From positions 1-26,289 of the forward strand of contig CAZTMG010000011.1 of NCBI GenBank assembly GCA_964614815.1: 26,289 nucleotides of DNA, written 5' to 3'. Of the stretch, positions 2,822 through 22,486 are shown one piece after another. The notes beneath the pieces are model-generated. The model ran no database searches and was not told the origin of the DNA. It saw nothing but the letters and a program-made list of their open reading frames with translations. Source of the stretch: an uncultured Rhizobium sp. (GTDB lineage Bacteria; Pseudomonadota; Alphaproteobacteria; Caulobacterales; Hyphomonadaceae). Position 1 is the first letter of the stretch. Every line of letters begins with the position of its first letter. The position numbers were made by a program, and so were the translations under genes.

Positions 2822-2890
2822 TGCCGGGACACTCCCGAAGCGACGCCGCCCAGCCCGAGAGTGACCCGATGGATAGCAGAGGAAACGGAG

Positions 2891-3112
2891 ATGATCGACA
2901 GGAAAATCACACTGGCGCTGATCCTTGCGCTGATCGTTGAATCGGCGGGCGTATTCATGTGGGCCGGGGCCACGGCCGAACGGCTCGACGAGCTGGAGGC
3001 GCGCGTTTCGTCGCAGGCCGTGATGGTCGAGCGGCTGGCGCGAGTCGAAGTCCAGCTCGAACAGGCGAACGCGCAGCTGAAGCGCATTGCGCAGAAAGTG
3101 GATGCGCTGTGA
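2891..3112 (+). CDS. GTA g3.5-like small protein (N-terminal TM + coiled coil), 73 aa
   Basis: MIDRKITLALILALIVESAGVFMWAGATAERLDELE; sits directly before the protease with a TGATG overlap; AGAGGA RBS. Confidence 0.75.
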   Translation: MIDRKITLALILALIVESAGVFMWAGATAERLDELEARVSSQAVMVERLARVEVQLEQANAQLKRIAQKVDAL

Positions 3113-3582
3113 TGCGGTCACTGGTGATCGAGGGGTATGCCTCGCTGTTCGGCGTCGAGGATCTGGCGGGCGACGTGGTGCGGGCGGGGGCGTTCACGCG
3201 GACCCTGGCCCGCGGCGGATCCGTCGGCATGTTGCTGGCCCATGTGGGCGGCCGGACGGCGGGCCGCTGGACCACGCTGCGCGAGGATGGACGCGGCCTG
3301 TTCGCACGCGGGTTCGTTTCGGACGCGACACCGGCCGGGGCGGCGGCGCTGAAGCTGATCGAAGCCGGGAAACTGGACGGGCTGTCCATCGGGTTCGTTG
3401 CGCGGGACTGGTCGCCGCGCGTCGGCCGCGGGCGGGAGCTGAAGGAGATCGAACTCCGGGAGATTTCACTGGTGACCTCCCCGATGCTGCCGGGGGCGCG
3501 GTTCACCGCGCCGGGCAGTGGAGAAAAAGTTACCGCTGGCGGGGGCGGCCTGACGCAGCGTCAGGCTTTCCGCTGGGGGTAA
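3112..3582 (+). CDS. HK97-family prohead protease (GTA g4), 156 aa
   Basis: IEGYASLFG..D..GDVV..GAF, LDGLSIGF, EISLVTSPM.PGAR. Start at ATG 3112 (or GTG 3109), coupled to g3.5. Confidence 0.93.
   Translation: MRSLVIEGYASLFGVEDLAGDVVRAGAFTRTLARGGSVGMLLAHVGGRTAGRWTTLREDGRGLFARGFVSDATPAGAAALKLIEAGKLDGLSIGFVARDWSPRVGRGRELKEIELREISLVTSPMLPGARFTAPGSGEKVTAGGGGLTQRQAFRWG
3548..3566. promoter_or_regulatory. Perfect inverted repeat, candidate operator upstream of the 3664 gene
   Basis: GCCTGACGC-A-GCGTCAGGC (9-bp arms), flanked by GTTAC (3529) and GTAAC (3579, 3589). Confidence 0.35.
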
Positions 3583-3663
3583 CGGGGCGTAACACTGCGA
3601 GGGGAAACCCGCGTGAACCACCGGACGCAGACTCCGGGGAGGACGCGACGGAGGAGAACGGCC

Positions 3664-4728
3664 ATGAAAACGAGATTGCTGGCTGCGACGGCCCTGTGCG
3701 TCGCCGCCATGCTGGGCGCAGGCGCGGCTTCAGCCCAGGCGCCGGGCTACACGCCCCCCAAGACGAGCTGGGGCGCGCCGGACCTGCAGGGGTTCTGGAA
3801 CAATACCTCGATCACCAGCCTCCAGCGTCCGCCTGACGCCAAGAGCCTGGTGGTCGACCAGAAGGAAGCGGACCGGCTGGTGAACCGCAATGTCCTGGTC
3901 GTGCTGACCAAGGAGGACAATTCGCGCAACGGCGAGGACCCGAACAACACCAAGATCCTCGAGGATGGCAACAACGATCGCGGCTACAACGCCTTCTGGA
4001 TCGATCCGGGCTCGAAGCTGGCGACAGTGAAGGGCGAGCTCAGGACGTCGTGGATCGTGGAGCCGGCGAACGGCCGCATCCCCTACAAGCCGGGCGCGGC
4101 GCGCGGCGGCGGCTATGCGATCACGAATTTCGACGGACCGGAAGTCCGCCCCATGGCGGAGCGCTGCGTGCTCAGCTTCTCGGGCTCGTACGGGCCGGTG
4201 ATGCAGAACAGCATGTACAACAACACCTTCCAGTTCGTGCAGACGCCCGGGTCGGTGATGATCCTCGTCGAGATGAACCACGATGTGCGGAACATACCGA
4301 TCGTGGCGAGCGCGGCGGAGGCGAAGCACGGACCGGTGCCGAAATGGGGCGGCGACTCCGTCGGCTGGTATGAAGGCAACACGCTGGTAGTGAAGACCAC
4401 GAATGTGCATCCGAACCAGCGCGCCCTGATTTCGCCCACGGGCATGCTTACCGAACGCTTCACGCGCTGGGACGATCACCAGATCCTCTACGAGTTCGAG
4501 GTGGACGATCCCTCGCTCTACAGCCAGGTGTGGAAGGGCGAGATGGCGCTGAACACAAGCAAGCCGATGTACGAGTATGCCTGCCACGAAGGCAATCACG
4601 CCATGCCTGGCATCCTCGGCGGCGCGCGCCAGCTGGAGCGCGAAGGCAAGGTGCCGGGCATGGGGCCGGGCATTGCGGCGGGACTCGTCCTGCCCCGCGA
4701 CGAGGCGGGCGGCGAGGGCTTCAACTAG
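3664..4728 (+). CDS. Secreted conserved hypothetical protein (PDLQGxW ... YEYACHEGN family), 354 aa
   Basis: GAGGAG RBS; Sec signal peptide ending ASA-Q; strong C-ending codon bias; motifs WGAPDLQGFW, ERC, YEYACHEGN. Confidence 0.85.
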   Translation: MKTRLLAATALCVAAMLGAGAASAQAPGYTPPKTSWGAPDLQGFWNNTSITSLQRPPDAKSLVVDQKEADRLVNRNVLVVLTKEDNSRNGEDPNNTKILEDGNNDRGYNAFWIDPGSKLATVKGELRTSWIVEPANGRIPYKPGAARGGGYAITNFDGPEVRPMAERCVLSFSGSYGPVMQNSMYNNTFQFVQTPGSVMILVEMNHDVRNIPIVASAAEAKHGPVPKWGGDSVGWYEGNTLVVKTTNVHPNQRALISPTGMLTERFTRWDDHQILYEFEVDDPSLYSQVWKGEMALNTSKPMYEYACHEGNHAMPGILGGARQLEREGKVPGMGPGIAAGLVLPRDEAGGEGFN

Positions 4729-4879: not shown

Positions 4880-4913
4880 CGACCGCGATGCTTCGCGGCG
4901 GTCGATGCTTTTT
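4880..4913 (+). terminator. Terminator-like hairpin in the capsid leader
   Basis: CGACCGC...GCGGTCG stem followed by ATGCTTTTT, about 25 nt before capsid ATG. Confidence 0.45.
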
Positions 4914-4937
4914 GAGCGAAGCGAACAAGGGAAACCC

Positions 4938-6173
4938 ATGACAATCGAGACGAAGATGAGCGCCCCGGCAGGGGCGAATGCCGAAGCGCGTCTGCTTTCG
5001 GCAGACGTGCTGGCGGCGTTCGAGGCGCTGAAGGCGGCGAACGATGCGCGGATCGACGAGATCGAGAAGCGCGGCGCGGCCGATCCTCTTCTGGACGCCA
5101 AGCTGAAGAAGATCGAGCAGACGCTGGACAGACAGCGCACGGCGCTGGAGCGGCTGGCGCTGGAGCAGGCAAGGCCGGCGATCGGCGATGATCCGCGCCG
5201 GACAGACCCCGAACACAAGTCGGCCTGGAGCGCCTATCTGCGCAAGGGCGACGACAGCGGCATCGCCAGGCTGGACCTCAAGTCGCTGAATGTCGGCACC
5301 GAGGCGCAGGGCGGCTATGTGGCGCCGCCGGAGCTCGACCGGCTGATCGAACAGCGGCTGACGGCGTCCTCGCCGATGCGGCAGATTGCAACCGTGCGCC
5401 AGACGTCGGCCACGGTGTTCCGCAAGCCTGTCAGCCTGGGAGCCGCGTCGTCCTGGGTGAGCGAGACGGGAGCCCGCGCGGAGACGACAGCGCCGCAGCT
5501 CGATCTGCTCGAGTTTCCAGCGGCGGAGCTCTACGCGATGCCGGCGGCGACGCAGACGCTGCTGGATGACGCCTATGCCGACATCGACGAGTGGCTGGCG
5601 GACGAGGTGGAGGCAAGCTTCTCGGCGCAGGAGTCGGCCGCATTCGTGAACGGCGACGGGGTCGGGCGACCGAAAGGGTTCCTCGATCAGGAGATGATCG
5701 CCGACGCCTCCCACGCATGGGGAAAGATCGGATACATCCTGTCCGGAGCGGACGGCGCGTTCGCCGCCACCAATCCGGCGGACCGGCTGATCGACCTGGT
5801 CTACGCCCTCAAGAGCCAGTTCAGGGCCAATGCGCGGTTCGTCATGAACCGGCGCACGGTTTCGGCTGTGCGCAAGCTGAAGGACGGCGACGACAACTAT
5901 CTCTGGCGGCCCGGCATGGCGGGCGAGTCGGCCAGCCTGCTCGGCTATCCGGTGACGGAGATCGAGGACATGCCGGACATGGCCGAGGACTCGTTCTCCA
6001 TCGCGTTCGGCGATTTCCGTCGCGGCTACCTGATCGTGGACCGCCAGGGCGCGCGCGTGCTGCGCGACCCCTATTCTCAGAAGCCCTACGTGCTGTTCTA
6101 CACGACCAAGCGCGTGGGCGGGGGCGTGCAGCACTTCGACGCAATCAAGGTGATGAAGTTCGCCGCCGCGTAG
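4938..6173 (+). CDS. HK97-fold major capsid protein (GTA g5), 411 aa
   Basis: N-terminal coiled-coil delta domain, GGYVAPPE, SPMRQIA, ELYAMPAATQTLLDD, FVNGDGVGRPKGFL, FVMNR..V..VRKLKDGDDNYLW, FGDFRRGYLIVDR, VLFYTTKRVGGGV. AAGGG RBS before ATG 4938. Confidence 0.97.
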   Translation: MTIETKMSAPAGANAEARLLSADVLAAFEALKAANDARIDEIEKRGAADPLLDAKLKKIEQTLDRQRTALERLALEQARPAIGDDPRRTDPEHKSAWSAYLRKGDDSGIARLDLKSLNVGTEAQGGYVAPPELDRLIEQRLTASSPMRQIATVRQTSATVFRKPVSLGAASSWVSETGARAETTAPQLDLLEFPAAELYAMPAATQTLLDDAYADIDEWLADEVEASFSAQESAAFVNGDGVGRPKGFLDQEMIADASHAWGKIGYILSGADGAFAATNPADRLIDLVYALKSQFRANARFVMNRRTVSAVRKLKDGDDNYLWRPGMAGESASLLGYPVTEIEDMPDMAEDSFSIAFGDFRRGYLIVDRQGARVLRDPYSQKPYVLFYTTKRVGGGVQHFDAIKVMKFAAA

Positions 6174-8484: not shown

Positions 8485-9057
8485 ATGATTGTAACGACGC
8501 TGGCGGGGCCGGCGGCGGAGCCCGTGGGCTTGGCCGAGGCCAGGGAGTATTTGCGCATCGGGAACGACGGACAGGACGCGCTCGTCGGCAGGCTGATCGC
8601 AGCGGCGCGGGCGCGAATCGAGGAACTCACCGGCGTCGCCATGATCGTGCGCAGCCTGCGCGTGACGATGGACTGGTGGCCGCGCGGGACGTCGGAGCGA
8701 CGGTGGATGCGCTTGCCGGTACGACCGGCAGGCGTGCTGGCGGCCGTGCGTGTCCATGATGGGCGCGGCAATGCGTCCGTTGTGACGAGCCGGTTCACGC
8801 TGCCGCCGGGGCGGGCGGCCAAGCTGATGTGGGTCGATGGCGTATTCCCCTGGCCCGGTCAGCGGGTCGGCGGGATCGAGATCGACTACGCGGCCGGTTT
8901 CGGCGAGACAGCCGACGATGTGGCCGACAGCCTGCGGTTGGCGGTGAAGCGCCTGGCGGCGCACGCCTACAATACCCGCGATCCGGGGACGATCGCAGGA
9001 CCTCTGCCGGTGGACGTTGCGGGCCTGATCGGTCCGTGGCGCAGGGTGCAGCTGTGA
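8485..9057 (+). CDS. Head-tail adaptor/connector (GTA g6, gp6-like), 190 aa
   Basis: PAAEPVGLAEAREYLRI...D.L...LIAAAR..IE..TG, GIEIDYAAGFG, LRLAV..LAAH.Y..R, P..V..LI.PWRRVQL. Confidence 0.9.
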   Translation: MIVTTLAGPAAEPVGLAEAREYLRIGNDGQDALVGRLIAAARARIEELTGVAMIVRSLRVTMDWWPRGTSERRWMRLPVRPAGVLAAVRVHDGRGNASVVTSRFTLPPGRAAKLMWVDGVFPWPGQRVGGIEIDYAAGFGETADDVADSLRLAVKRLAAHAYNTRDPGTIAGPLPVDVAGLIGPWRRVQL

Positions 9058-9461
9058 GCGCGGCCGAGGCGCTGGTTGAGCAGGCGCTGCTTGACCTGCT
9101 GGCTGCGGATGCGGGGGTGCAGGCCGCCCTCGGCGATCCGATACGGGTAAAGACGGGAGACGCCGACAGACCAGCCTATCCGTTTCTCGAGATCGCGGCG
9201 CATCAGAGCCGCACCACGGACGTCGCCGGCTTCGCTGGCGGGGAGCACATCATCGATCTCGCGGTGACCTCCTTCAACGACAAGGGTCAGGGCGGACTTG
9301 CGGGACTGGGGGCGGTGCGGGCCGCTCTCCGCGATGCAAGGCTTTCCATGGACGGCTGGCGGGACGTGCTGATAACCCCGATCTTTGCCGATATCCTGCG
9401 GGCGGCGCCGGGTCTCTGGCGCGCGATCCTGCGCCTGAGGATCGTGATCGAGGAAGCCTAG
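9054..9461 (+). CDS. Tail terminator / tail completion protein (GTA g8, DUF3168), 135 aa
   Basis: GTG start overlapping the g6 stop (GTGA); Q.AL...L.AD..V.A.LG, P.YPF, EH...L.V.S pattern. Confidence 0.8.
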   Translation: MSAAEALVEQALLDLLAADAGVQAALGDPIRVKTGDADRPAYPFLEIAAHQSRTTDVAGFAGGEHIIDLAVTSFNDKGQGGLAGLGAVRAALRDARLSMDGWRDVLITPIFADILRAAPGLWRAILRLRIVIEEA

Positions 9462-9949
9462 CGGCCGAGGCGACCCAGTACATAGAGCGCGCCTCCGCCC
9501 AGGAGGCCGGGGATGGCCAGATCGGCTGTCAGGAGAGGCAGGTCCATGCGCATGGCGAGATCCGGCCGGGCGTGAAGCATTGCGGCATAAAGCCCGACAA
9601 GGCTGCCGACGATGACCCCGGCGGCGCCCAGCACGATCGCGAATGTGCGGCCGGTCTCCTTCAGCGTGTGCAACGCACGGCCACGCGCCGCGGCATAGTA
9701 CTTGCGGCCGATCGCCTGACGCTTGCCTGCCAGAAGCCAGGCGCCGAACGCCAGGGCGAGTCCGAAGGACACGAGGCCGGCGACGGCCATGGAGGACAGA
9801 CCGCTGGCATAGGCCACGACGACAGCGGGAGGCCCGAACGCGCTGGCGTCATGGCGCGTCAGGCCCAGCACGACCGGCAGGCCCGTCAGCACGAGCAGGA
9901 TGCTGGCGGCGGAAACGATACGAAGTCGCCGGGTCTTGTAGAAGCGCAT
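9458..9949 (-). CDS. Hypothetical multi-pass membrane protein, 163 aa
   Basis: About four hydrophobic segments separated by Arg/Lys-rich loops; fills the gap between g8 and the Kef gene. No family recognised. Confidence 0.6.
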   Translation of the reverse strand: MRFYKTRRLRIVSAASILLVLTGLPVVLGLTRHDASAFGPPAVVVAYASGLSSMAVAGLVSFGLALAFGAWLLAGKRQAIGRKYYAAARGRALHTLKETGRTFAIVLGAAGVIVGSLVGLYAAMLHARPDLAMRMDLPLLTADLAIPGLLGGGALYVLGRLGR

Positions 9950-10129
9950 GGCGGATCCCGAGTAGGACCCCTGCCTGACACAGGCTGGTTAAGATCAGCT
10001 TGGGCGAGGCGTCGAAATTCCTCCGCCGGAGCAAGTTGCGAAGAACTTCTTGCTTTCCCGAATTGCGATCTGCGAAGCTGGAAATCCCCGAAATGTCCGG
10101 GGCATGAGCTTGAAAAGGCGTACATACGC

Positions 10130-11812
10130 TTGTCGCACCAGTCGCCGCTGATCGCGCTGCTGGCCATCGGGTTCGGGATGGCGTTCGTGTTTGGCGCCAT
10201 CGCGAGCCGGCTGAAGCTGTCGCCGTTGCTGGGATATCTTCTGGCGGGCGTGCTGATCGGGCCCTCGACCCCCGGATTCGTGGCGGATGAAGGGCTGGCG
10301 CAGGAGGTCGCGGATGTCGGCGTGATCCTGCTGATGTTCGGGGTTGGCCTGCATTTCTCGCCGCGTGACCTGCTGTCCGTGCGTGCGGTGGCGGCGCCGA
10401 TCACGCTGCTGACGATCGCGTTCACCGTGGCGCTTGGCGTGGCGGTGGGGATTGTCCTGGGCTGGGGCGTCGAGGCGGGGGTGGTGTTCGGGCTGGCGCT
10501 GTCGGTCGCCTCAACCGTGGTGTCGCTGCGCAACCTGCAGGACCGGCGTCTGATCCAGACTGAGCGCGGCAAGCTGATGGTGGGCTGGCTGGTGGTGGAG
10601 GACCTGGCGATGGTGCTCGCCATGGTGCTGCTGCCGACCTGGGCGACGATCCGCAGCCAGACGGGCGGCGGAGAGGCGATGACGGTCCTGCAGCTGCAGG
10701 ATATAGGCCTCGCCGTGGCGCTGACGTTCGGCAAGGTGGCGCTGTTCGCCATGATCATGCTGCTTGCGGGCAAGCGCCTGGTGCCATGGATCCTGCACGG
10801 CGTCGTGCACATGGGATCGCGCGAGTTGTTCCGGCTGTGCGTGCTGGCGATTGCGCTGGGCGTGGCGTATGCGGCGTCTGCGCTGTTCGGAATCTCGGTG
10901 GCGCTGGGCGCATTGTTCGCCGGGCTGATCATGGCGGAGAGCGAGCTGTCGCAGCAGGCGGCGAACGAGACGCTGCCCTTGCGCGACGCATTCGCCGTGC
11001 TGTTCTTCGTGTCGGTCGGCATGCTGTTCGATCCGCGCCTGCTGCTGGGCAACCCCTGGCCGCTTCTGGCGGCGCTGGCGATCATCGTGGTCTTCAGAAC
11101 CGTCCTGAGCCTTTTCCTCCTGCGGATGTTCGGCCAGTCGCGCGAGGCGGCAGGCACCGTGACGGCCGCACGGGCGCAGATCGGCGAGTTCTCGTTCATC
11201 CTGGCGGGGATCGGGATGCAGCTGGGGCTGATCCCGGTCGAGGCGCGCAACGCTATCCTCGGGGGGGCGATCATTTCGATCGTGCTCAACCCGGTCGTGT
11301 TCGCCCTGCTGGATCGCAGGACGAAGAAGAAGGAGGCTGCCGGGCCGGAGCCGGCCCCCGCGCCCGTTCCGGCGCCGGAGCCGAAGCGGGCGGTGCTGAT
11401 CGGCTATGGCCGCGTGGGATCGCTGATCGGCAAGGCGCTGGACCAGGCCGGGGCGAATTACTCCGTCGTCGAGGACCGGCCGGACGTGGTCGAGACGCTG
11501 CAGGCGCGGGGCGTCACGGCCATTCAGGGGAACGGGATTTCCCGCGAGTCGCTGCAGGCGGCGGGGGCGGACACGGCGGATCTTGTGTTCGTGACCGTGC
11601 CGGACGGCTTCGAGGCGGGCGGCATTGTGGAGCTGGCGCGGGAGCTGAACCCCGGCGTGAAGGTGTATGCGCGCGCGCATTCGGACGCCGAGGTTGAGCA
11701 TCTGCGGGCGCTGGGCGCGGACCTGATCGTTTCGGGCGAGCAAGAGATCGCGGACGCCATGATCGACAAGGCGACGGCGTTCATTCCGAAACGGATTGTC
11801 GCGCGTCGCTAA
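10130..11812 (+). CDS. ybaL: CPA2/Kef-type cation:proton antiporter with C-terminal TrkA-N domain (YbaL/RosB-like), about 560 aa
   Basis: SPLI...GFGMAF.FG..A.RLKLSPLLGYLLAG, GVILLMFGVGLHFS, SVASTVV, GWLVVEDL, LPLRDAFAVLFFVSVGM, QIGEFSFILA, GYGRVG. Probable TTG start at 10130. Confidence 0.92.
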   Translation: MSHQSPLIALLAIGFGMAFVFGAIASRLKLSPLLGYLLAGVLIGPSTPGFVADEGLAQEVADVGVILLMFGVGLHFSPRDLLSVRAVAAPITLLTIAFTVALGVAVGIVLGWGVEAGVVFGLALSVASTVVSLRNLQDRRLIQTERGKLMVGWLVVEDLAMVLAMVLLPTWATIRSQTGGGEAMTVLQLQDIGLAVALTFGKVALFAMIMLLAGKRLVPWILHGVVHMGSRELFRLCVLAIALGVAYAASALFGISVALGALFAGLIMAESELSQQAANETLPLRDAFAVLFFVSVGMLFDPRLLLGNPWPLLAALAIIVVFRTVLSLFLLRMFGQSREAAGTVTAARAQIGEFSFILAGIGMQLGLIPVEARNAILGGAIISIVLNPVVFALLDRRTKKKEAAGPEPAPAPVPAPEPKRAVLIGYGRVGSLIGKALDQAGANYSVVEDRPDVVETLQARGVTAIQGNGISRESLQAAGADTADLVFVTVPDGFEAGGIVELARELNPGVKVYARAHSDAEVEHLRALGADLIVSGEQEIADAMIDKATAFIPKRIVARR

Positions 11813-12243
11813 AGCAGCGTGGCGAGAACGCCGAGCATCCTTTCCCAGGCGGCGCGGGAACGGTCGATGAAGTCGGCCCATTCCGGCGCCATCTCGTGGA
11901 CGAGTCGGAGGGAGCATCCGTCTGCGGTCGGCGTGATGTCGATGGAGACGACAGACGGATCATCATCGCCCTCGCCCGCGATGGCCCAGGTGAAGACGAT
12001 GCGGGTGGGCGGGACGAGTTCGAGGAAGCGGCCGACATGGTCGATCTCATGCTCGCCGCGGCGGACCTTGTAGGAAAATTCGCCGCCAATGCGTGGATCG
12101 TTGTGGATATGGAGGATGGTTTCCTCGCGCAGCAACGGGCCGAACATGAAGCGGGCGATCATCTCCGTATCGAGGATGGCGTCGTAGACGCGCTGGGCCG
12201 GGACACGGAATATCTGGACGGCGATAGCGGCGGGCTTGGACAT
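11809..12243 (-). CDS. SRPBCC / AHA1-START-like domain protein #4, 144 aa
   Basis: F.VP..RVYDA..D, G.F.ELVPP.RIVFTW, V.IDI.P..DG..L.L.HE, W..ML..L. Confidence 0.9.
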   Translation of the reverse strand: MSKPAAIAVQIFRVPAQRVYDAILDTEMIARFMFGPLLREETILHIHNDPRIGGEFSYKVRRGEHEIDHVGRFLELVPPTRIVFTWAIAGEGDDDPSVVSIDITPTADGCSLRLVHEMAPEWADFIDRSRAAWERMLGVLATLL

Positions 12244-12245
12244 CG

Positions 12246-12719
12246 TCAGTGGCCCTCCGGCCATTTTGTGGATTCGATGAGCGGTTCGCCGGTTTCGAGC
12301 AGGCTCTTGAGGCTGGCGAAGAGATGCGGCCAGCCTTCGGACATGGCGCCGAGGATTTTCGAGTCGGGGACGTCGGTTTCCTGGATCAGGGTGAGTTTCA
12401 CGGAAGTTCCGACCTCTTCCAGCAGATAGGCGACACGAGTGGGGCCCTCGGCCTTCAGCTCGGGTTGGAAGTCGATGGCCCAGTGGATGACCAGCTTCTT
12501 CGGGTAGTCGACCTCGAGAATCTTGCCGATATCGCCGACGCGGCCATCGGGGATCATCAGGCGCCAGTCCGAGCCGGGTCTCCAGTCGGACACTTGATGC
12601 GTCCCGGCCCAGTAACGTTTCGTGAATTCAGGCTGAGTCAGCGCCGCCCAGACCTTCTCCGGGGTGGAGCGGATGTAGGTGACATAGACGAAGCGGGAGC
12701 CCGATTGACCGACCGTCAT
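12246..12719 (-). CDS. SRPBCC / AHA1-START-like domain protein #3, 157 aa
   Basis: FVYVTYIRSTPEKVWAALTQPEFT..YW, G.ILEVD.PKKLVI.W, GWP.L.ASLKSLLETG; TGATG-coupled to the upstream gene. Confidence 0.92.
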   Translation of the reverse strand: MTVGQSGSRFVYVTYIRSTPEKVWAALTQPEFTKRYWAGTHQVSDWRPGSDWRLMIPDGRVGDIGKILEVDYPKKLVIHWAIDFQPELKAEGPTRVAYLLEEVGTSVKLTLIQETDVPDSKILGAMSEGWPHLFASLKSLLETGEPLIESTKWPEGH

Positions 12720-13198
12720 CAGCTTTTCCTTTCCCAGTCTGGATGATAGGGGGCCGGGGCGCCTTCGAGCACGCTCTTGAGGCATGAGAGGATGGCGGGC
12801 CAGCCATTCGAGATGCTGATGCGCACGCGGGAATTGGCCTTGAAGTTGGCGTGCGTGACCCTGAGCATCGTGTTGGCGCCGCTTTGTTCCAGCTCGTAGG
12901 TGACCAGGGTAGGGCCTTCGTCATGCTGCGGGCCGGGGCCTTCGACGTGGAAGGTGTAGACGAGTCTGTGGGGCTCGTTGCGCTCGAGGATTTCACCGCG
13001 CACATCGACCTTGCCATTGCGACGGTAGACGATCGGGTCGCCGACCTTGAACGTCGAGTCATGTCGGGTGTCGGCCCACCAGCGGCGGATGGTCTCGCCA
13101 TCAACGAGCGCATCCCAGACCTTCTGCTGGCTGGCGGCGATGTAGATCACGTAGACGAATTCGGGGTCGGCTTCGGCGTGGGGTTTCGGAGCAGGCAT
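12719..13198 (-). CDS. SRPBCC / AHA1-START-like domain protein #2, 159 aa
   Basis: FVYVIYIAASQQKVWDAL, GEILE..EPHRLVYTF, GWPAILSCLKS.LE. Confidence 0.92.
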   Translation of the reverse strand: MPAPKPHAEADPEFVYVIYIAASQQKVWDALVDGETIRRWWADTRHDSTFKVGDPIVYRRNGKVDVRGEILERNEPHRLVYTFHVEGPGPQHDEGPTLVTYELEQSGANTMLRVTHANFKANSRVRISISNGWPAILSCLKSVLEGAPAPYHPDWERKS

Positions 13199-13209
13199 TC
13201 TGCAGTCTC

Positions 13210-13659
13210 CTAGAAGGGGGATGGAAGGGGCTTTCCAGTTTCGACAAGGGTCTTGAGGCCGGCCAGCAGAGCGGCCCAGCCCTGCACGGCGCTGTCCGTG
13301 ATGTCCTGAGGCCATTTGCGGCCGTGGTATTCGCGGATGGCGACGCGGGTTGTGCCGTTCGAGGCTGGCTCGATAAGGAACTCGACGCGATCGGGCGGCG
13401 GGTCGTTGTCGAAGCCCCAGGTGATGAGCAGCCGGTTCGGAGGTTGCTTCGCGAGAACAATGCCGGTGATGGCCGGCCATTTGTCTGTGGCGTGGCGGAT
13501 CCAAGGCTCGCCGATCTCGCCGATCTCCGTCCGGCCGCCGAAATAAGTGGCCTGGTCTTCGGGGTCGGTGAAGGCGCGCCACACGCGGTCGACGCTGGCG
13601 TTTATGTAAGTGACCGCGACGTAGTCCGGCCGTTCGGGGAGGGCGTCGTCCGGCGTCAT
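13210..13659 (-). CDS. SRPBCC / AHA1-START-like domain protein #1, 149 aa
   Basis: YV.VTYINAS..RVW.AFTDP, G.VL..QPPNRL.ITW, GW..LL.GLKTLVETG; ATGA overlap with arsR. Confidence 0.9.
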   Translation of the reverse strand: MTPDDALPERPDYVAVTYINASVDRVWRAFTDPEDQATYFGGRTEIGEIGEPWIRHATDKWPAITGIVLAKQPPNRLLITWGFDNDPPPDRVEFLIEPASNGTTRVAIREYHGRKWPQDITDSAVQGWAALLAGLKTLVETGKPLPSPF

Positions 13660-13964
13660 TCCGATTCTAGCTTCCTCTTGAGGTCGACAAGCGCGTCGAC
13701 GCGGCGGCGTTCGAATTTCCGTATCCACCGGTTGGCGATCTCTGCGATCGGCACCGGATTGAGGTAGTGCAGCTTCTCGCGTCCACGCTTCACGGTGGCG
13801 ACGAGATTGGCTTCTTCCAGGATCGCAAGATGTTTCGAGACGGCCTGACGCGTCATGGCGAGGCCAACGCACAGCTCATTCAGCGTCTGGCCGCTGTGGG
13901 CGCAGAGGCTGTCGAGCAGGGCGCGGCGGCTGCCGTCCGCAAGGGCCCGGAACACCAGATCCAT
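13656..13964 (-). CDS. ArsR/SmtB-family transcriptional repressor, 102 aa
   Basis: VFRALAD.SRR.LLD.L, MTRQAVSKHL.ILEEANLV...KRGREKLHYLNPVPI. Confidence 0.95.
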   Translation of the reverse strand: MDLVFRALADGSRRALLDSLCAHSGQTLNELCVGLAMTRQAVSKHLAILEEANLVATVKRGREKLHYLNPVPIAEIANRWIRKFERRRVDALVDLKRKLESE

Positions 13965-13969
13965 GCCTC

Positions 13970-13999
13970 ATAATAGGCAACCAAAAGGTTGCATGTCAA
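13970..13999 (-). promoter_or_regulatory. sigma70-type promoter of the arsR-SRPBCC operon, probably leaderless
   Basis: Minus strand TTGACA (13999-13994), 18 nt, TATTAT (13975-13970). Predicted +1 falls at about 13964, the ATG itself, and there is no RBS. A second TTGACA lies at 14012-14007. Confidence 0.75.
13977..13992. promoter_or_regulatory. ArsR operator (inverted repeat)
   Basis: GCAACC-AAAA-GGTTGC in the -35/-10 spacer, typical of ArsR autorepression. Confidence 0.75.
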
Positions 14000-14026
14000 C
14001 CCTTCATGTCAAGAAAGGAAAGAGCG

Positions 14027-14449
14027 ATGGCGGGCCAGAGAGGCCGCGACGTGCTGATCAGCATTGGCGATGGCGACGTGCCGGAGACGTTCGTGCCCGT
14101 GGCGGGCATACGCGCAAAGACCATCAGCCTGACTGCGGGGCTGATCGAGGCGACGACCGCGCAGAGTCCGGACGGATGGCGCGAACTGATCGCCGGCGCC
14201 GGCGTGAAGCGGGCGGAGATCGCGGGCAGCGGCGTGTTCAAGGACACGCTTTCCGACGCGCTCATCCGCGCCGCGTATTTCGCGGGCGATGCCTCGACCT
14301 ATCAAATGATCATACCGGATTTCGGCCTGATGCAGGGGCCCTTTGTCATCACCGAGCTCATCTATGGGGGCGAGCATGCGGGCGAAGCAGAGTTTTCAAT
14401 CCGCCTTGCATCGGCGGGCCTCGTGACGTTCGAAGCAGGAGACTTCTGA
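14027..14449 (+). CDS. Major tail tube protein, TP901-1 family (GTA g9), 140 aa
   Basis: MAGQRGRDVL..IGDG, GIRAKTISL, GWRELIAGAGV, GSGVFKD..SD, IPDFG...GPF.ITEL.YGGEH.GEA.F.I.LASAG. AAAGGA RBS. Confidence 0.95.
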   Translation: MAGQRGRDVLISIGDGDVPETFVPVAGIRAKTISLTAGLIEATTAQSPDGWRELIAGAGVKRAEIAGSGVFKDTLSDALIRAAYFAGDASTYQMIIPDFGLMQGPFVITELIYGGEHAGEAEFSIRLASAGLVTFEAGDF

Positions 14450-14450
14450 G

Positions 14451-14756
14451 ATGACGGATCAACGCGAGGACGGCGCCCGGGCGGCGGGCGATGCGCTGGA
14501 AGCGGCGCTGATGCGGGCGACGCAGGCGGTGGAGCGCGAACTGGCGCGGATCGTCAGAGCTGGCGAGGAGGATCTCGACCGGCTGGCGCGAAAGATTGCC
14601 GAAACGCTGGCGCAACTGGCGATCGACGGCGTGCTCGGGAGTGTGCTGGAGGACCGAGACGGCGCCGGCAAGACGACGCCTGCCGGGCCGGCGTCTCTCA
14701 ATGGCGTCGCGGCGGCGCTGGCGCGGGCGGTGCAGCGCGGCGGGAGATTCATATGA
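14451..14756 (+). CDS. Very short tape-measure-like protein (GTA g11 position), 101 aa
   Basis: Lies between tube and distal tail. Helical Ala/Glu/Arg-rich, ending in the ALARAV.RG.R.I pattern typical of GTA TMP C-termini; ATGA overlap with g12. Confidence 0.7.
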   Translation: MTDQREDGARAAGDALEAALMRATQAVERELARIVRAGEEDLDRLARKIAETLAQLAIDGVLGSVLEDRDGAGKTTPAGPASLNGVAAALARAVQRGGRFI

Positions 14757-15379
14757 GCGGGTTTCATGAGGTGAGCCTGCCGCTGGCGCTGGCCATCGGC
14801 GCGGCTGGCGGGCCGGAGCGCGTCGTGGATGTGGTTCGCCTGGCGTCGGGCGCTGAAAGCCGGAATGCACGCTGGGCAGGATCGCGACGTAGGTGGGAGG
14901 TCGGCGGAGTCGCGCTGGGGTCAGACGAGGCGCATGCTCTGGTGACGTTCTTCGAGGCGCGGGGCGGGCGGATGCATGGCTTCCGCTTTCGCGACCCGGT
15001 GGACTGGAAGAGCTGCGCGCCGGGCGCTGCGATCAGCGCGACGGACCAGCCGCTGGGCGTTGGCGATGGCGTGGAGACCCGGTTCCAGTTGACGAAGCGC
15101 TACGAGAGCGGCGGGGCGTTCGCCGACCGGACGATCCGTAAGCCCGTGGCGGGAAGCGTTGTAGCGGCCGTGGATGGCGCAGCGACCGTGGCGTTTGTGG
15201 TCGATACCGTGACGGGGATCGTGACGTTCGATGCGCCGCCGGCGAACGGCGCAGTGCTGACGGCCGGGTTTGCATTCGACGTGCCGGTGCGTTTCGACAT
15301 CGACCGGCTGGAGATGGCGCTCCTGGGGCGCGAGGCGGTGCGCGTGCTGCGCGCGCCGGTGGTCGAGATCGAGGAATAG
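14753..15379 (+). CDS. Distal tail protein (GTA g12, DUF2460/TIGR02217), 208 aa
   Basis: FHEV..P...A.GA.GGPE, E.RNARW..SRRRW, FFEAR.GR.HGFRFRDP.DWKS, FQL.KRY, TAGF.FDVPVRFD.DRL. Confidence 0.95.
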   Translation: MSGFHEVSLPLALAIGAAGGPERVVDVVRLASGAESRNARWAGSRRRWEVGGVALGSDEAHALVTFFEARGGRMHGFRFRDPVDWKSCAPGAAISATDQPLGVGDGVETRFQLTKRYESGGAFADRTIRKPVAGSVVAAVDGAATVAFVVDTVTGIVTFDAPPANGAVLTAGFAFDVPVRFDIDRLEMALLGREAVRVLRAPVVEIEE

Positions 15380-15382
15380 ACA

Positions 15383-16255
15383 ATGAGGCAGATCAGTGAG
15401 GCGTTCGCCGCCAGGCTGGCGGCGGATGCGACGACGCTGTGCGCGTGCTGGCGATTCACGCTCAGCGATGGCGCAGTGTTCGGCGCGACGGATCATGACC
15501 GCGCGCTGACCTTTGAAGGCGTGACGTTCGAGCCGGCGGCCGGACTGGCGGGCGCGACATTCGAGAGCGGGAGCGGGCTGGCGCCGGGGCGATGCGCGGC
15601 GGAAGGGGCGGTGTCGCTCGATTTCGTCACCGCGGCGGATATCGATGCAGGCCTATGGGACGGGGCGCGGGTGGACGTCTGGCGCGTCGACTGGGCGGCG
15701 CCCGAGCACCGGGTGATGATCTGGTCGGGGCGGTTGTCCGAGATATCGCGGCGTGGGGCGGCCTTTGCGGCGGAGCTGGTAAGTCTCAAGGCGGGTCTGG
15801 AGCAGAGGATCGGGCGTGTCTATTCGCGCAGCTGCGATGCCGATGTGGGCGATGCACGGTGCGGCGTGGATCTCGCCGATGCGGCCTACCGGGCGGAGGG
15901 CGTCGTCACGCAGCTCATCGGCGCACAGAGGTTTCTGGCGAGCGGACTGGGCGGGTTTGAACACGCCTGGTTCACGGGCGGCGTCCTGACCTGGACCGGC
16001 GGGGCGAATGCGGGGCGCGCCATGCGCGTGTCGCGCCACAGCGGAAGCGAGATCGAACTGGCCCGCGCGCCGCGGCTTGCTGTGGACGAGGGTGATGCGT
16101 TTGTCGTCACGGCGGGGTGCGACAAGAGCTTTGCGATGTGTGGCGCGCGATTTGGAAATCGTCTGAACTTCCGTGGCTTTCCACACATGCCAGGACCCGA
16201 GGCCGTGCTTGCCGGACCTGCGGCAGGCGGGAATGACGGCGGGAGGCGCGGATGA
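15383..16255 (+). CDS. Baseplate hub protein (GTA g13, DUF2163/TIGR02218), 290 aa
   Basis: TTLCACWR....DG..FG.TDHD, G.WDGA.V..WRVDW, CDA.VGDARC, GCDK.F..C..RF.N..NFRGFPHMPG (conserved Cys set). Confidence 0.95.
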   Translation: MRQISEAFAARLAADATTLCACWRFTLSDGAVFGATDHDRALTFEGVTFEPAAGLAGATFESGSGLAPGRCAAEGAVSLDFVTAADIDAGLWDGARVDVWRVDWAAPEHRVMIWSGRLSEISRRGAAFAAELVSLKAGLEQRIGRVYSRSCDADVGDARCGVDLADAAYRAEGVVTQLIGAQRFLASGLGGFEHAWFTGGVLTWTGGANAGRAMRVSRHSGSEIELARAPRLAVDEGDAFVVTAGCDKSFAMCGARFGNRLNFRGFPHMPGPEAVLAGPAAGGNDGGRRG

Positions 16256-16698
16256 GCGGATTATCGCGCGCCGCCATCGTCGACGAGGCGCGACGGTGGA
16301 TCGGGACGCCCTACCGCCACCAGGCCAGCGTGCTGGGCGTGGGAGCCGATTGCCTTGGCCTCGTTCGCGGGGTGTGGCGCGGGGTGATCGGACCGGAGCC
16401 GGTCAAGGCGCCGCCCTATACGCCGGACTGGGCGGAGATGCGGGGCGGCGACCACCTTATGGAAGCTGCGCGACGCTGGCTGACGGAGATACCTGTCGGG
16501 GCTGCGAGCGCAGGCGACGTGTTGCTGTTCCGCATGGCGCTGGGCGCGCCGGCGAAGCATGCAGCGATCGTCAGCGGGACCGAGCGGATCATCCATGCCT
16601 ATTGGGGGCGGTCGGTCTGTCAGACCCATCTCGTGCCGTGGTGGCGGCGACGGATCGCGGCGGCATTTTCATTTCCGGGAGTTGAGGCTGATGGCTGA
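16252..16698 (+). CDS. NlpC/P60 cell-wall peptidase (GTA g14, TIGR02219), 148 aa
   Basis: ARRWIGTPYRHQAS..G.GADCLGLVRGVWR (catalytic Cys), Y.PDW, GDVLLFRM, AKHAAI, IIHAY. Confidence 0.95.
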   Translation: MSGLSRAAIVDEARRWIGTPYRHQASVLGVGADCLGLVRGVWRGVIGPEPVKAPPYTPDWAEMRGGDHLMEAARRWLTEIPVGAASAGDVLLFRMALGAPAKHAAIVSGTERIIHAYWGRSVCQTHLVPWWRRRIAAAFSFPGVEADG

Positions 16699-19600
16699 AC
16701 TCGTTCTGAGTCGCGTGGGCGCGGAGGTCGGGAAGGCGTTTCTGCCGAAGGGATTTGCAGTCCTTGCGCAGGCGGCGGGGCGCCTGGCGGGAGGGATGCT
16801 CGACAGGCAGTTCCTGTCGCCGCCGGTGGAGGGGCCGCGTGTGCAGGCGTTCCACCTCACGGAAGGACGCGAGGGCGCCGGGATTCCCCTGGTGTACGGA
16901 CGCTTCCGCGTTGGCGCTCAGCTGATCTGGGCGGCAAACTTCAAGGAGCGGCGCGAGGTGGAAGGCGGAAAGGGCGGACCGCGCGTGGCGGACTATTCCT
17001 ACACGTTGAGCTTTGCCGTGGGGCTGTGCGAGGGCGAGATCGCGCGCGTGTCCCGCTGCTGGGCGAACGGGGCGCCGTTCGACCTTTCGCAGGTGACGTG
17101 GCGGCTCCATCACGGGACGGAGGACCAGGCGCCCGATCCGCTGATCGAGGCCATCGAGGGCGAAGCGCCCGCCTATCGCGGTCTCGCCTACATCGTGTTC
17201 GAGGACATGCCGGTCGATGCATTCGGAGCACGCATGCCGCAGCTGTCGTTCGAGATCGTGCGGCCTGCGGGCGGCGGAGCGGAGCGAATGGAGAATGTGA
17301 TCCGCGCAGTGAACATCATCCCGGGATCCGGAGAGTTTTCGCTGGCGACGGACATCGTTAAGCGAAGGACCGGGCCAGGGCGCGAGACGGCGGAAAACCT
17401 GCACGGTCCGGAGGTGAAGAGCGATTTCGAGGCGTCGCTGGACCAGCTGGAGGCGGAGCTGCCGAACGTGTCGCGCGTGAACCTCGTCGTTGCGTGGTTC
17501 GGGACGGACTTGCGATGCGGGGAGTGCCTGGTGCGTCCGGGCGTGGAGATTGCGGCGAAAACGACCGTTCCGCATGCATGGAGCGTTGCGGGGATGGCGC
17601 GACATGCCGCGCATGTGATCTCGACCACGGGCGGGCGCGCGAACTATGGCGGAACGCCCTCGGACACAAGCGTGCGACAGGCGATCGCCCTGCTGAAGGC
17701 GCGGGGATATCACGTGACGCTCTATCCCTTCCTGCTGATGGACGTCCCGGCTGGGAACGGGTTGCCCGATCCCCATGGCGGCGATGAGCAGCCAGCGTTT
17801 CCGTGGCGCGGGCGAATAACCGCGGTTGCGGGAGACGTCAGCGCGCAAGTGGAAGCGTTCTTTGCGCGGTATCGGGAGATGGTGCTGCACTATGCCGGCA
17901 TAGGCGCGCAAGAGGGCGTCGACGGCGTTCTGATCGGATCGGAACTGGTGGGACTGACGCGGTTGCAGGCAGGCGCAGATTTCCCCGCGGTGACCGCGCT
18001 GTGTGCGCTCGCGGAGGATGTACGCTCTGTCGCCGGGGCGGACATCGAAGTGAGTTATGCTGCGGACTGGACGGAGTATGGCGCGCATGTCGTTGGCGGT
18101 GATGTGACATTCCCGCTCGACGCGCTCTGGGCGCATCCGGCGATCAGCTATGTCGGACTCGACTGGTATGCGCCGATGGCCGACTGGCGCGACGGGGATG
18201 GTCACGCGGACGCCGCCTTCGGGGATGGACGGTCAATCGCCTATCTGACGGGCAACGTTGCAGGAGGCGAGGCGTTCGACTGGTATTACGCTGACGTCGA
18301 GGGGCGGCTGGCGCAGGACCGTCTTGCCATCACGGATGGAGCGCATGGCGAGCCGTGGGTGTTCCGGCAGAAGGACATTCGCAGCTGGTGGGGCAATGCA
18401 CATCATCCGCGAACGGACGGCGTTCGCGCGGAGACGCACACTGCCTGGACGCCCGGAATGAAGCCGGTGCGCTTTGTCGAAATGGGCGTGCCTGCGGTCG
18501 ATCGTGGCGCGAACCAACCGAATGTGTTCTACGACCCCAAGAGTTCGGAGAGTTCGCTCCCGCACTTCTCCGACGGATCGCGCGACGATGTGATCCAACG
18601 CCGGGCGATCGAGGCTTTCCATGCGTTCTGGAGGGACACTGGGAACAATCCCGCATCGACCGTGTATGACGGCCGAATGCTGCCTGAGGACGGCGTTGTC
18701 CTGTGGGCCTGGGACGCGCGGCCGTTCCCTGCCTTTCCGGGCCGCAGCGATGTGTGGAGCGACTCAGACAACTGGCGACTTGGGCACTGGCTCAACGGAC
18801 GTGCGGGAGCGGCGATGCTGGCCGATGTGGTTGCAGACGTGGGCCTGCGCGCCGGCGTACGCTTCGACACGACAGATCTCGTTGGCGTTGTATCCGGTTA
18901 TGGCCTTGTCGGACCAGCGAGCGCACGGGACGTTCTGGAGCCGCTGGCGTTGGCTCACGGTGTCGATGCGGTCGAGCATGACGGCATGATCCATTTCCGG
19001 ATGCGCGGCGAAGCGAGCTTCACGATCGATGGCGGACGACTTGTGGCGGAGGATGGGCCGGAGAGGGTCATGGCGCGAGCCGGCCTGGAGCAGGACGAGG
19101 CTGTGGTGCGGCTGGGCTTTGTCAATGCGGAGCAGGAATATGAGCCTGGGCTCGCGCTTTCGACGGGCGGCGCAGATGCGCGTCTGGTCGATGTCGAACT
19201 CGCCCTGGCCATGGATCGCGGGCAGGCGCAGCGCTGCGTCGAACGGCTGGCGCAGGATTTGATGCTGGGACGCGAGCGGGTGCGGTTCGCGATGGCGGCG
19301 GATGGCGCCGTCATCGAGCCGGGTGATGTGGTGACGCTCGATGGGGAAACGTGGCGCATTGTCGAGATTGGCGATGGGCGTACCGTTGCCTTTGAAGCCG
19401 TGCGGGCAGGGAATTCTGAAGCTCCTGTGCTGACGCCGGCGGCGCCGTCGGCTGCGGCGCCTGTGGCGCCGGAAGCCGAACCGGATGTCGTGATCGTGGA
19501 TGCGCCGCCCTTGCAGGGGGAAGAGAATGATCTGCGTCCGCTGGCCTTCGTGTTTGCGGAGCCGTGGACAGGGCCCGTCACGTTCCGGGCAGGCGCCGAG

Positions 19601-20374
19601 GCCGGCCAGCTGACGGAACGCGGACGCGTAGGGCGGCCATGTGTGATGGGCCGCCTGATCGGCGCGATGTATCCCCACGTTTCAGGACGGTGGCAGGAGG
19701 CGTCGATCTGGGTGAGCGTTGCGGGTGGCGCGCTGCCGTCGGCGACGCGGGCAAGCGTACTCAATGGGGCGAACAGGGCGCTGGTCGAGACGGAAGCTGG
19801 CTGGGAGATGATCCAGTTCGAGGAGGCTGAACTCGTCGATGTGGAGACGTATCGGCTCACAAACCTGTTGCGGGGCCAGCAGGGGTCGGAAGAAGCCATG
19901 AAGGCCGGGGCTCCCGCGGACGCGCGGATCGTGTTTCTCACGGGCGCGGAGCAGCGGCTGGAAGTGGCTGAGTGGGAGCAGGGAGTCCCGCTTGAATGGC
20001 GCGCCGGCGAGGCATCGGGCGTATACAATCACGCAGCCAAGGCGGGCCGCCCCTGGTCTCCCGCCCATTTGCGCGCGCGGCGGGACGAGGGGGACATCAT
20101 CCTCTCATGGACGCGGCGAGCGCGGACCGGCGGCGACTGGTGGGGAGGCGGGGAGCCCCCGGGGGAGGGGGCGGAGGTCTACCTGATACGCGTCACAGGA
20201 GGAGAATCGTCGCGGGAGTGGCAATCCGCAACGTCATCGGCAATCTATCGGGCCCTGGATCAGGCAGCGGATTTTCCCGGGGGAGGCGTGGCCCTGATCG
20301 AGGTGGCGCAAGCCGGGCGGCATGGCGAGCCCGGAGCCTGGAGCCGGGTTGAAGTCGCCATTCCCGCATCGTAA
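16691..20374 (+). CDS. Megatron / host-specificity baseplate protein (GTA g15; TIM-barrel and phage-tail domains), 1227 aa
   Basis: EGAGIP.VYGR.RVG.QLIWA, PAYRGLAYIVFED, IPGSGEF, WFG.DLRCGEC, GGTPSD.SV, YAADWTEY, KPVRFVEMG.PAVDRGANQPNVFYDPKSSES, WDARPFP.FP, W.LGHWLNGR, LRGQQGSE, W.RRAR.GGD.W. Start ATG 16691. Confidence 0.95.
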   Translation: MAELVLSRVGAEVGKAFLPKGFAVLAQAAGRLAGGMLDRQFLSPPVEGPRVQAFHLTEGREGAGIPLVYGRFRVGAQLIWAANFKERREVEGGKGGPRVADYSYTLSFAVGLCEGEIARVSRCWANGAPFDLSQVTWRLHHGTEDQAPDPLIEAIEGEAPAYRGLAYIVFEDMPVDAFGARMPQLSFEIVRPAGGGAERMENVIRAVNIIPGSGEFSLATDIVKRRTGPGRETAENLHGPEVKSDFEASLDQLEAELPNVSRVNLVVAWFGTDLRCGECLVRPGVEIAAKTTVPHAWSVAGMARHAAHVISTTGGRANYGGTPSDTSVRQAIALLKARGYHVTLYPFLLMDVPAGNGLPDPHGGDEQPAFPWRGRITAVAGDVSAQVEAFFARYREMVLHYAGIGAQEGVDGVLIGSELVGLTRLQAGADFPAVTALCALAEDVRSVAGADIEVSYAADWTEYGAHVVGGDVTFPLDALWAHPAISYVGLDWYAPMADWRDGDGHADAAFGDGRSIAYLTGNVAGGEAFDWYYADVEGRLAQDRLAITDGAHGEPWVFRQKDIRSWWGNAHHPRTDGVRAETHTAWTPGMKPVRFVEMGVPAVDRGANQPNVFYDPKSSESSLPHFSDGSRDDVIQRRAIEAFHAFWRDTGNNPASTVYDGRMLPEDGVVLWAWDARPFPAFPGRSDVWSDSDNWRLGHWLNGRAGAAMLADVVADVGLRAGVRFDTTDLVGVVSGYGLVGPASARDVLEPLALAHGVDAVEHDGMIHFRMRGEASFTIDGGRLVAEDGPERVMARAGLEQDEAVVRLGFVNAEQEYEPGLALSTGGADARLVDVELALAMDRGQAQRCVERLAQDLMLGRERVRFAMAADGAVIEPGDVVTLDGETWRIVEIGDGRTVAFEAVRAGNSEAPVLTPAAPSAAAPVAPEAEPDVVIVDAPPLQGEENDLRPLAFVFAEPWTGPVTFRAGAEAGQLTERGRVGRPCVMGRLIGAMYPHVSGRWQEASIWVSVAGGALPSATRASVLNGANRALVETEAGWEMIQFEEAELVDVETYRLTNLLRGQQGSEEAMKAGAPADARIVFLTGAEQRLEVAEWEQGVPLEWRAGEASGVYNHAAKAGRPWSPAHLRARRDEGDIILSWTRRARTGGDWWGGGEPPGEGAEVYLIRVTGGESSREWQSATSSAIYRALDQAADFPGGGVALIEVAQAGRHGEPGAWSRVEVAIPAS

Positions 20375-20479
20375 GGGGGGAGAAACCTTCAGTTTCGCCC
20401 AAAAATACCCATCTTCTCGCTTGTCTTGCGGGGGGAAGAGGTCCCACGTTGGGGGCCAGACGTTCGCCAAGGGTCGTCA

Positions 20480-21373: not shown

Positions 21374-21434
21374 TCCCCGTGTCGGGGAAGGCAAAGGCAG
21401 TGAAAACTGAAAGGTTTTCCTGCGTGATGCAGTC

Positions 21435-21450
21435 GTTCAGACGGGGTTCA
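21435..21450 (+). promoter_or_regulatory. 11-bp-spaced direct repeat GTTCA-N6-GTTCA upstream of the PepSY-RR-HK operon
   Basis: GTTCAGACGGGGTTCA; fits an OmpR-type tandem box and also the alphaproteobacterial LexA consensus GTTC-N7-GTTC. Confidence 0.4.
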
Positions 21451-21454
21451 CGCT

Positions 21455-21784: not shown

Positions 21785-21804
21785 GACATCCCAAGGATTC
21801 TGGC

Positions 21805-22485: not shown

Positions 22486-22486
22486 C

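Follow-up and report, generated by a model that had tools for sequence, protein, structure and literature searches.

Organization of the neck and tail genes

The window, that is, the whole stretch of DNA analyzed here, is an entire 26.3-kb contig (26,289 nucleotides) of a metagenome-assembled genome (2.77 Mb, 287 contigs, 69% complete) whose nearest relatives are Hyphomonadaceae genomes. It carries a cluster of head and tail genes of the families that make up RcGTA, the gene transfer agent (GTA) of Rhodobacter capsulatus. A Pfam profile scan assigned g3, g4, g5, g6, g8, g9, and g11–g15 in the RcGTA order and detected the GTA-specific domains DUF2460, BR0599, GTA_TIM, and Rcc01698_C, and the gene junctions were read from the sequence itself. 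Judging from these gene families, their order, and the GTA-specific domains, the cluster is classified as an RcGTA-type GTA. The stopper gene g7 and the tail assembly chaperone genes g10 and g10.1 are missing from it, and the tape measure gene g11 is short.

The neck and tail genes all lie on the forward strand. The head-tail adaptor gene g6 (8485–9057, 190 residues) matches Phage_connect_1, and the tail terminator (tail completion protein) gene g8 (9054–9461, 135 residues) covers positions 1–124 of the 124 positions of Tail_completion_gp17. The major tail (tube) protein gene g9 (14006–14449) matches Phage_tail_2 over its full length with 111 bits, and its likely start is the second ATG, at 14027, which matches the relatives. 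The next gene, g11 (14451–14756), encodes a miniature tape measure protein of 101 residues (Tape_meas_lam_C, 23.9 bits; cut-off 23). It is followed by the distal tail protein gene g12 (14753–15379; DUF2460, 251 bits), the baseplate hub gene g13 (15383–16255; Phage_phiJL001_Gp84_N and Phage_BR0599), the cell-wall peptidase gene g14 (16252–16698; NlpC/P60), and the megatron or host specificity gene g15 (16691–20374; GTA_TIM with 420 bits, Phage-tail_3, and Rcc01698_C). The scan of g15 covered 16694–20374, with its ATG at 16691, and g15 aligns end to end with its relatives. Since g9 and g12–g15 are all full length, the tube, distal tail, hub, peptidase, and megatron are intact, as an initial annotation of this DNA had stated.

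The junctions between these genes are tight. g6 and g8 share a GTGA overlap at 9054–9057 (an alternative GTG start of g8 lies at 9036), g9 and g11 are separated by a single base (TGA-G-ATG, 14447–14453), and g11 and g12 share an ATGA overlap at 14753–14756. These overlaps and the 1-nt gap leave no space for g7, g10, or g10.1. The initial annotation had described the same junctions and the same three reductions, and the sequence and the profile searches bear out both. It had also read the seamless junctions as a sign of selection. However, clean junctions are expected when a whole gene leaves a translationally coupled array, and they are thus not independent evidence of selection. The same deletions, which it had proposed to look for in relatives, are found there: g7 is missing family-wide, and the arrangement of g9, short g11, and g12 occurs in 22 other loci. 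Since this order and the same g6–g8 overlap recur in related loci, the layout is not a matter of chance.

Loss of the stopper gene from the neck

A g6 profile built from 32 relatives aligns with the RcGTA adaptor Rcc01688 (6TBA) along its entire length (E = 1.6e-29), and that of g8 finds SPP1 gp17 (E = 1e-9) as well as the RcGTA terminator Rcc01690 (E = 3.3e-7). In Caulobacteraceae and Parvularculaceae clusters, a gene of 104–115 residues lies between g6 and g8, and a stopper would be expected there as a PF05521 gene of about 105–115 residues between adaptor and terminator; the window has none. PF05521 also gave no credible match elsewhere in the window's own, 69%-complete genome. Since that genome is incomplete, five related genomes, single-contig chromosomes among them, were also searched whole, namely four near-complete congeners and Hyphobacterium, and none of the five contains a PF05521 match. 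As positive controls, the profile detects the outgroup g7 of L019 and L033 at 41 and 76 bits.

The absence extends over the family. Among 121 genomes of the GTDB family, matches were found for g6 in 95, g12 in 86, g9 in 81, g10 in 64, g10.1 in 61, and g7 in 8, and none of these eight g7 matches lies between g6 and g8 of a resident GTA. A survey across the taxonomic order found g7 in 2 of 40 genomes of the window's family versus 13–28 of about 40 in four other families, and among 40 related loci drawn from at least 10 genera, 37 have a g8 that starts 4 or 22 bases before the g6 stop codon. The near-absence of g7 across the family, together with this coupling of g6 to g8, indicates that the stopper was lost once, long ago. 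Intact clusters without g7 occur in about 80 genomes, which belong to at least 17 genera, and the comparisons indicate that a two-gene neck has been retained in dozens of species since that ancient loss.

Compensating extension of g6 or g8 in the g7-less lineages was ruled out, since the lengths of both are alike with and without g7 and the C-terminal PWRRVRL end of g6 is identical in the two kinds of lineage. Complex prediction of g6 with g8 (alignments A1 and A2) gave a score of 0.00, which weighs neither way.

Two irregular loci were found along with these. One of the eight g7 matches belongs to a second, complete cluster in G034. On contig C42 (about 19100–22700), this more complete cluster (g6, g7, g9 pieces, g10, g10.1, and g12) exists beside the g7-less resident cluster and may represent either a prophage or a GTA-like element gained by horizontal transfer. 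The g8 of G022 (L102) diverges abruptly in its C-terminal third, which may reflect a frameshift caused by long-read assembly error or early pseudogenisation.

Stepwise shortening of the tape measure

The g11 proteins fall into three length classes. In Roseicyclus, Rhizobium, Parvularculaceae, and Maricaulis, g11 has 171–221 residues and comprises an N-terminal helix, a conserved helical core, a beta-rich middle with an LVGERGPE-type motif, a short strand, and a C-terminal helix. In Hyphobacterium and most genera of the window's family, it has 121–147 residues and the beta-rich middle is gone. In the window's genus and three sister genera, only 88–103 residues are left, the beta-rich middle, about 25 N-terminal residues, and the short strand all being gone. 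Aligned in this way, the sequences indicate that g11 shrank in two separate steps, from 171–221 to 121–147 and then to 88–103 residues, domain by domain.

The 101-residue protein of the window has the features of a tape measure, since its gene lies between the tube and distal tail genes and the product is helical and carries the motif. It aligns with the helical core and the C-terminal helix of full-length GTA g11, and a search with the g11 family profile recovers a phage tape measure of solved structure (25vf_5, E = 3e-10). The AlphaFold2 model consists of a helix at residues 2–70, a 10-residue linker, and a second helix at residues 81–100, with a mean predicted local distance difference test (pLDDT) score of 82.6. 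The protein is thus a true tape-measure remnant and not a chaperone. By analogy with RcGTA, g11 would form a trimer in the tail lumen and set the length of the tube.

Apparent g9–g11 fusions in L066 and L076 are artefacts of an open alternative frame, and the g9 stop codon is present in every locus. In L009, the short g11 (9702–10004) is split into two open reading frames, and the g15 alignments of L009 and L005 are broken into several pieces; both may be frameshifts from long-read assembly error or early pseudogenisation.

Late and repeated loss of the tail assembly chaperones

The chaperones would be expected as two small overlapping genes between the tube and tape measure genes, and no such pair is present in the window. 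PF11836 (g10) and PF09550 (g10.1) gave no credible match in the window's own genome, at its 69% completeness. Among the five genomes searched whole, only Hyphobacterium and the congener that carries locus L012 have g10 and g10.1, and in each of the two the pair sits precisely between g9 and g11. The sensitivity of the profiles is adequate, since they find g10 of L012 at 50 bits and, more generally, the genus's own g10 and g10.1 at E values of 1e-11 to 1e-12.

Loss of the chaperones goes with a short tape measure. In chaperone-less clusters, the gap from g9 to g12 is 271–341 bases and g11 has 88–103 residues only, whereas chaperone-bearing clusters have gaps of 763–1225 bases and g11 proteins of 94–221 residues. 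Two loci of the genus clade, L012 and L008, keep g10 and g10.1 beside a g11 of 94–100 residues, in an array of closely overlapping genes (TGATG, ATGA, and an overlap of 17 nt). Since they retain chaperones next to a short g11, the ruler was shortened before the chaperones were lost. The same two loci rule out a single deletion that took g10, g10.1, and the N-terminal half of g11 together. A g10.1–g11 fusion in L012, suggested by an open frame of 191 residues, was also ruled out, since g10.1 is a separate gene of 65 residues that overlaps the g11 start by 17 nt.

In a maximum-likelihood tree of g12–g15, L012 and L008 branch within chaperone-less clusters of their own genus, and G070, which has chaperones, is sister to a chaperone-less clade of another genus. 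Chaperone presence on this tree needs at least four state changes. An approximately unbiased (AU) test rejects a single chaperone-less clade (p = 1e-4), for a group named after the tree was seen and on a tree of GTA genes, in which recombination could mimic repeated loss. The g9–g11 spacers vary between subclades, from overlap to 26 nt, which fits several separate deletion events. Taken together, the loci and the tree indicate that the chaperones were lost last and more than once, only where g11 had already shrunk to about 100 residues.

A normal neck and a chaperone-assisted tail could still be made if the missing roles were filled by proteins that are unrelated, or too diverged to be recognised, and whose genes lie elsewhere, possibly within the inserts of the cluster. 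Our sequence searches used Pfam profiles only, which non-homologous stand-ins could escape, and this also counts against a stopper-less, short-tailed particle; moreover, the window's genome is 69% complete, and George et al. (2022, PMC9254644) raised the same possibility for Rickettsiales. We nevertheless regard such substitutes as quite unlikely. The profiles readily detect the genus's own chaperones and the outgroup stoppers, yet the near-complete congeners have no stopper and, except for g10 and g10.1 of L012 in their usual place, no chaperone match. The initial annotation had called for a search for g7, g10, and g10.1 elsewhere in the genome, and no replacement genes turned up in the window's 69%-complete genome or in the four congeners. 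The inserted genes belong to ordinary host families (Kef, AHSA1, ArsR, SDR, and SnoaL), and the tail would remain short in any case, since the tape measure is short regardless of any substitute.

Selection on the remaining genes and decay within the genus

The ratios of nonsynonymous to synonymous substitution rates (dN/dS) were calculated by the Nei–Gojobori method for seven genome pairs with dS of 0.6–2.2. They are 0.17–0.23 for g6, 0.18–0.23 for g8, 0.10–0.26 for g9, 0.13–0.28 for the short g11, and 0.10–0.25 for g12–g15, all of them rough values since dS is partly saturated. In the same pairs, host genes inside or beside the cluster gave 0.05–0.28 (paralogous matches excluded). These values do not fit neutral decay and indicate purifying selection on the remaining neck and tail genes, so that the window's copy is not decaying at random, as the initial annotation had held. 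Since the losses are of different ages, are common to many relatives, and accompany purifying selection, they are a trait of the lineage and not damage in one genome. On balance, we lean towards the view that the cluster encodes a working, short-tailed, stopper-less variant of the RcGTA type, and it would then be expected to produce particles that package and transfer host DNA.

Several points weigh against this view, besides the saturation of dS and the reach of the profile searches. No TerL (g2) match was found in the window's 69%-complete genome, whose contig ends just upstream of the portal gene; in congeners, TerL is intact and lies 9–13 kb upstream of the portal gene. The inserted host genes described below break the cluster into modules and could disturb co-expression, and we found no particle, transcript, or transfer data for any member of the family in the literature. 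The system has also been lost or gutted in half of the genus, a point that the initial annotation had missed. Ten of the 19 sampled species of the genus lack g12. In G097 (L122), G107 (L123), and G046 (L124), g12–g14 and most of g15 are deleted, so that g9 is followed by a g11 fragment or nothing and then by only a C-terminal remnant of g15; these gutted modules occupy an unchanged chromosomal site, next to the same ArsR and DnaJ-like genes, and G107 is also frameshifted in g8 and g9. In G120, g6 contains a stop codon, and G116 and G038 have g6 fragments. Since g12 loss or gutted modules affect about half of the genus's species, the system is dispensable in the genus, and selection to keep it is weak or patchy. 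Recurrent GTA loss and pseudogenisation have been reported (PMC10883770), in agreement with this pattern.

The cluster of the window could accordingly be on its way out, the losses of g7, g10, g10.1, and half of g11 being early decay and the locus providing no working tail and no DNA transfer. The remaining genes would then look intact only because they have not yet had time to erode completely, or because some have been put to a different use. The state of the congeners and the interruption of the cluster by cargo speak for this explanation, which we consider unlikely but not negligible. It does not easily explain why g7-less clusters are intact in so many genera, or why chaperone-less clusters are intact across a dS of about 1 with every gene, including the 101-residue g11, under the same constraint as neighbouring host genes. 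Real decay elsewhere is obvious as deletions and frameshifts, and none is present in the window.

Host genes inserted in the cluster

The head genes lie upstream of the neck, with the portal gene at 214–1389, g4 at 2959–3582, and g5 at 4905–6173 (all assigned by Pfam). A block of unrelated host-type genes of 4.5 kb (9458–13964), on which the initial annotation was silent, separates g8 from g9. By Pfam, it consists of a membrane protein gene (9458–9949, reverse strand), a Kef-type cation/proton antiporter gene (about 10100–11812, forward strand), four AHSA1/SRPBCC genes (11809–13662, reverse strand), and an ArsR regulator gene (13656–13964, reverse strand). The Kef, AHSA1, and ArsR genes hold the same position in congeners, with dN/dS of 0.06–0.28. 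Further host genes lie in the g4–g5 and g5–g6 intervals. The cluster is interrupted by host genes amounting to about 10 kb. The same flanking and inserted host genes are found in congeners, which places the cluster at a fixed chromosomal site, and there are no phage lifestyle genes. The tree of g12–g15 groups the clusters by genus, which also fits vertical inheritance.

The division into modules bears on another proposal of the initial annotation, that heads and tail or baseplate are not joined and work as separate products, for example as a tailocin-like or adhesin-like baseplate beside DNA-filled heads. The head, neck, and tail genes are indeed in modules divided by cargo, and the tail module stands beside the divergent ArsR gene. 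However, g6 and g8 serve only to join head and tail, yet both are conserved under the constraint given above, and the C-terminal end of g6 is unchanged. In the decayed congeners, the tail-tip genes g12–g15 are deleted while g6, g8, and g9 persist (some frameshifted), and no module is kept alone as a product. Nothing we found supports separate products, and we regard them as very improbable.

Several further features of the inserted genes were noted. The divergent ArsR-family gene directly upstream of g9 (13656–14026) is kept across the genus with 84–93% identity and dN/dS of about 0.06 and occupies the same place in L004, L005, L010, L012, and L013, so that the tail module begins beside an ArsR promoter region in all these loci. 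Between g4 and g5, a gene of 371 residues (3613–4728) has a signal-peptide-like N-terminus and no Pfam family; it occupies the same place in congeners (72–90% identity) and is duplicated in tandem in G075 (L085). Between the portal gene and g4, an open reading frame on the reverse strand (2108–3121) has a weak GmrSD_N (DUF262) match below the Pfam cut-off and is kept in congeners at 60–75% identity (L085 and L086). On the closed chromosomes of G075 (L085) and G068 (L091), a creatininase-family gene and other host genes lie between TerL and the portal gene.

A proposed model of a short-tailed particle

What the sequences show is which genes are present, in what order the others were lost, and how the remaining ones are constrained. 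We consider that these observations are best explained by a vertically inherited RcGTA-type GTA whose neck and tail have been progressively miniaturised. According to the comparisons, g7 was lost once, in the ancestor of the window's family and the Maricaulis/Hyphobacterium group, and g6 has been coupled translationally to g8 since then. The beta-rich middle domain of g11 was dropped next, followed, in the ancestor of the window's genus and its sister genera, by part of the N-terminal helix and the short strand. In the resulting g11 of about 100 residues, a linker joins a helix of 69 residues to the conserved C-terminal helix. With g11 that short, g10 and g10.1 were deleted several times independently.

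The structure of RcGTA provides a basis for picturing such a particle. Bárdy et al. (2020, PMC7296036) described a tail 49 nm long with five tube hexamers, in which a common fold is found in the rings of the stopper, the terminator, the tube, and the distal tail. By their account, the stopper leaves the channel open and DNA passes through it, and retention of the DNA probably falls to the tape-measure trimer and the iris of the baseplate. Since these rings share one fold, direct docking of the 12-mer adaptor onto the terminator hexamer seems plausible in the window's GTA, and since the RcGTA stopper leaves the channel unplugged, its loss need not release the DNA. The RcGTA tape measure consists of a helix of 113 residues, 83 residues of beta structure and loops, and a 20-residue helix, and fills the lumen of the five tube rings and the distal-tail ring (PMC7296036). 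At 0.15 nm per residue, the 69-residue helix would be about 10 nm long, compared with about 17 nm for the 113-residue RcGTA helix, to which the beta domain is added. With a trimer of the short tape measure, the tube would thus probably extend over some two or three g9 rings, where RcGTA has five. Such a ruler may be small enough to fold and load without chaperones, and, jointly with the baseplate iris, it would still plug the tail lumen. We would expect such a GTA to work, but with a clearly shorter tail.

Discussion

Compared with RcGTA (g1–g15; 6TBA, 6TE8, and 6TE9), the window has the same gene families in the same order but lacks g7, g10, and g10.1 and is split by host genes, and its 101-residue g11 lacks the beta-rich middle and part of the N-terminal helix of the RcGTA protein (about 216 residues, 113 + 83 + 20). 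Other genera of the family and the Maricaulis/Hyphobacterium group resemble the window in that g6 is coupled directly to g8 without g7. The beta-rich middle of g11 is already gone in the other family genera and Hyphobacterium and is still present in Maricaulis (L021, 171 residues). Unlike the window, most of these relatives keep g10, g10.1, and a g11 of 121–171 residues, and they have no insert between g8 and g9. The initial annotation had described the reductions as coordinated. The relatives show that they are neither coordinated nor particular to this genome, since the loss of g7 is ancient and family-wide, g11 shrank in two steps, and the chaperones went last and repeatedly, and all three reductions are shared with many other genomes. 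The layout is therefore a variant of the RcGTA type that is not specific to the window's genome. We found no description in the literature of the GTA layout of this family, of a stepwise reduction of the ruler, or of repeated chaperone loss.

Reduced RcGTA-type clusters are known from Rickettsiales and Holosporaceae endosymbionts, where tail parts are missing and the remaining genes are under purifying selection (George et al. 2022, PMC9254644). The window's cluster is similar in both respects. However, those clusters have lost the tube and other tail parts and belong to obligate symbionts, whereas the window comes from a free-living lineage that keeps the tube, the terminator, and the full baseplate and is short of nothing but the stopper, the chaperones, and half of the ruler. 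Bárdy et al. (PMC7296036) likened the RcGTA tape measure to the tail needle gp26 of P22, a rod-shaped trimer that plugs the channel. A helix-linker-helix protein of about 100 residues made without chaperones would seem nearer to such a plug than to a ruler. In contrast to P22 and other short-tailed phages, the window keeps the tube gene g9 and a siphophage-type baseplate. A tentative extension of the model, which we put forward as a possibility only, is that a free-living GTA lineage is moving from a siphophage-like to a near-podophage-like tail, with a neck of adaptor and terminator, a tape measure acting as a needle-like plug, and repeated chaperone loss only after the tape measure had come down to about 100 residues. 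If this is true, the family offers a natural experiment on the ruler length below which chaperones are dispensable.

The findings also touch on how GTA clusters are counted. In the survey of Kogay et al. (2024), a "complete" cluster has all 14 of the genes that remain when g1, g3.5, and g7 are set aside; g7 was "not easily detected" across clades, and clusters short of any of the other 14 genes were discarded as incomplete (PMC10883770). The window would be among the latter, as it has no g10 or g10.1 and its g2 is off the contig. Should particles be made, many of the clusters that are at present set aside in this way would need to be considered possible GTAs.

In this family, the absences of g7 and of g10 and g10.1 are genuine and of long standing, and they are consistent with purifying selection having acted on the other genes over a long time. 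The losses are also ordered, the stopper having gone first, the ruler second, and the chaperones last. If the cluster does yield particles, two ring proteins, not three, would make up the minimal neck of a tailed particle. The family, which includes cultured genera, would then also provide a graded series of g11 proteins of 221, about 130, and about 100 residues, with and without chaperones, that could reveal how the length of the ruler relates to that of the tube and to the need for chaperones.

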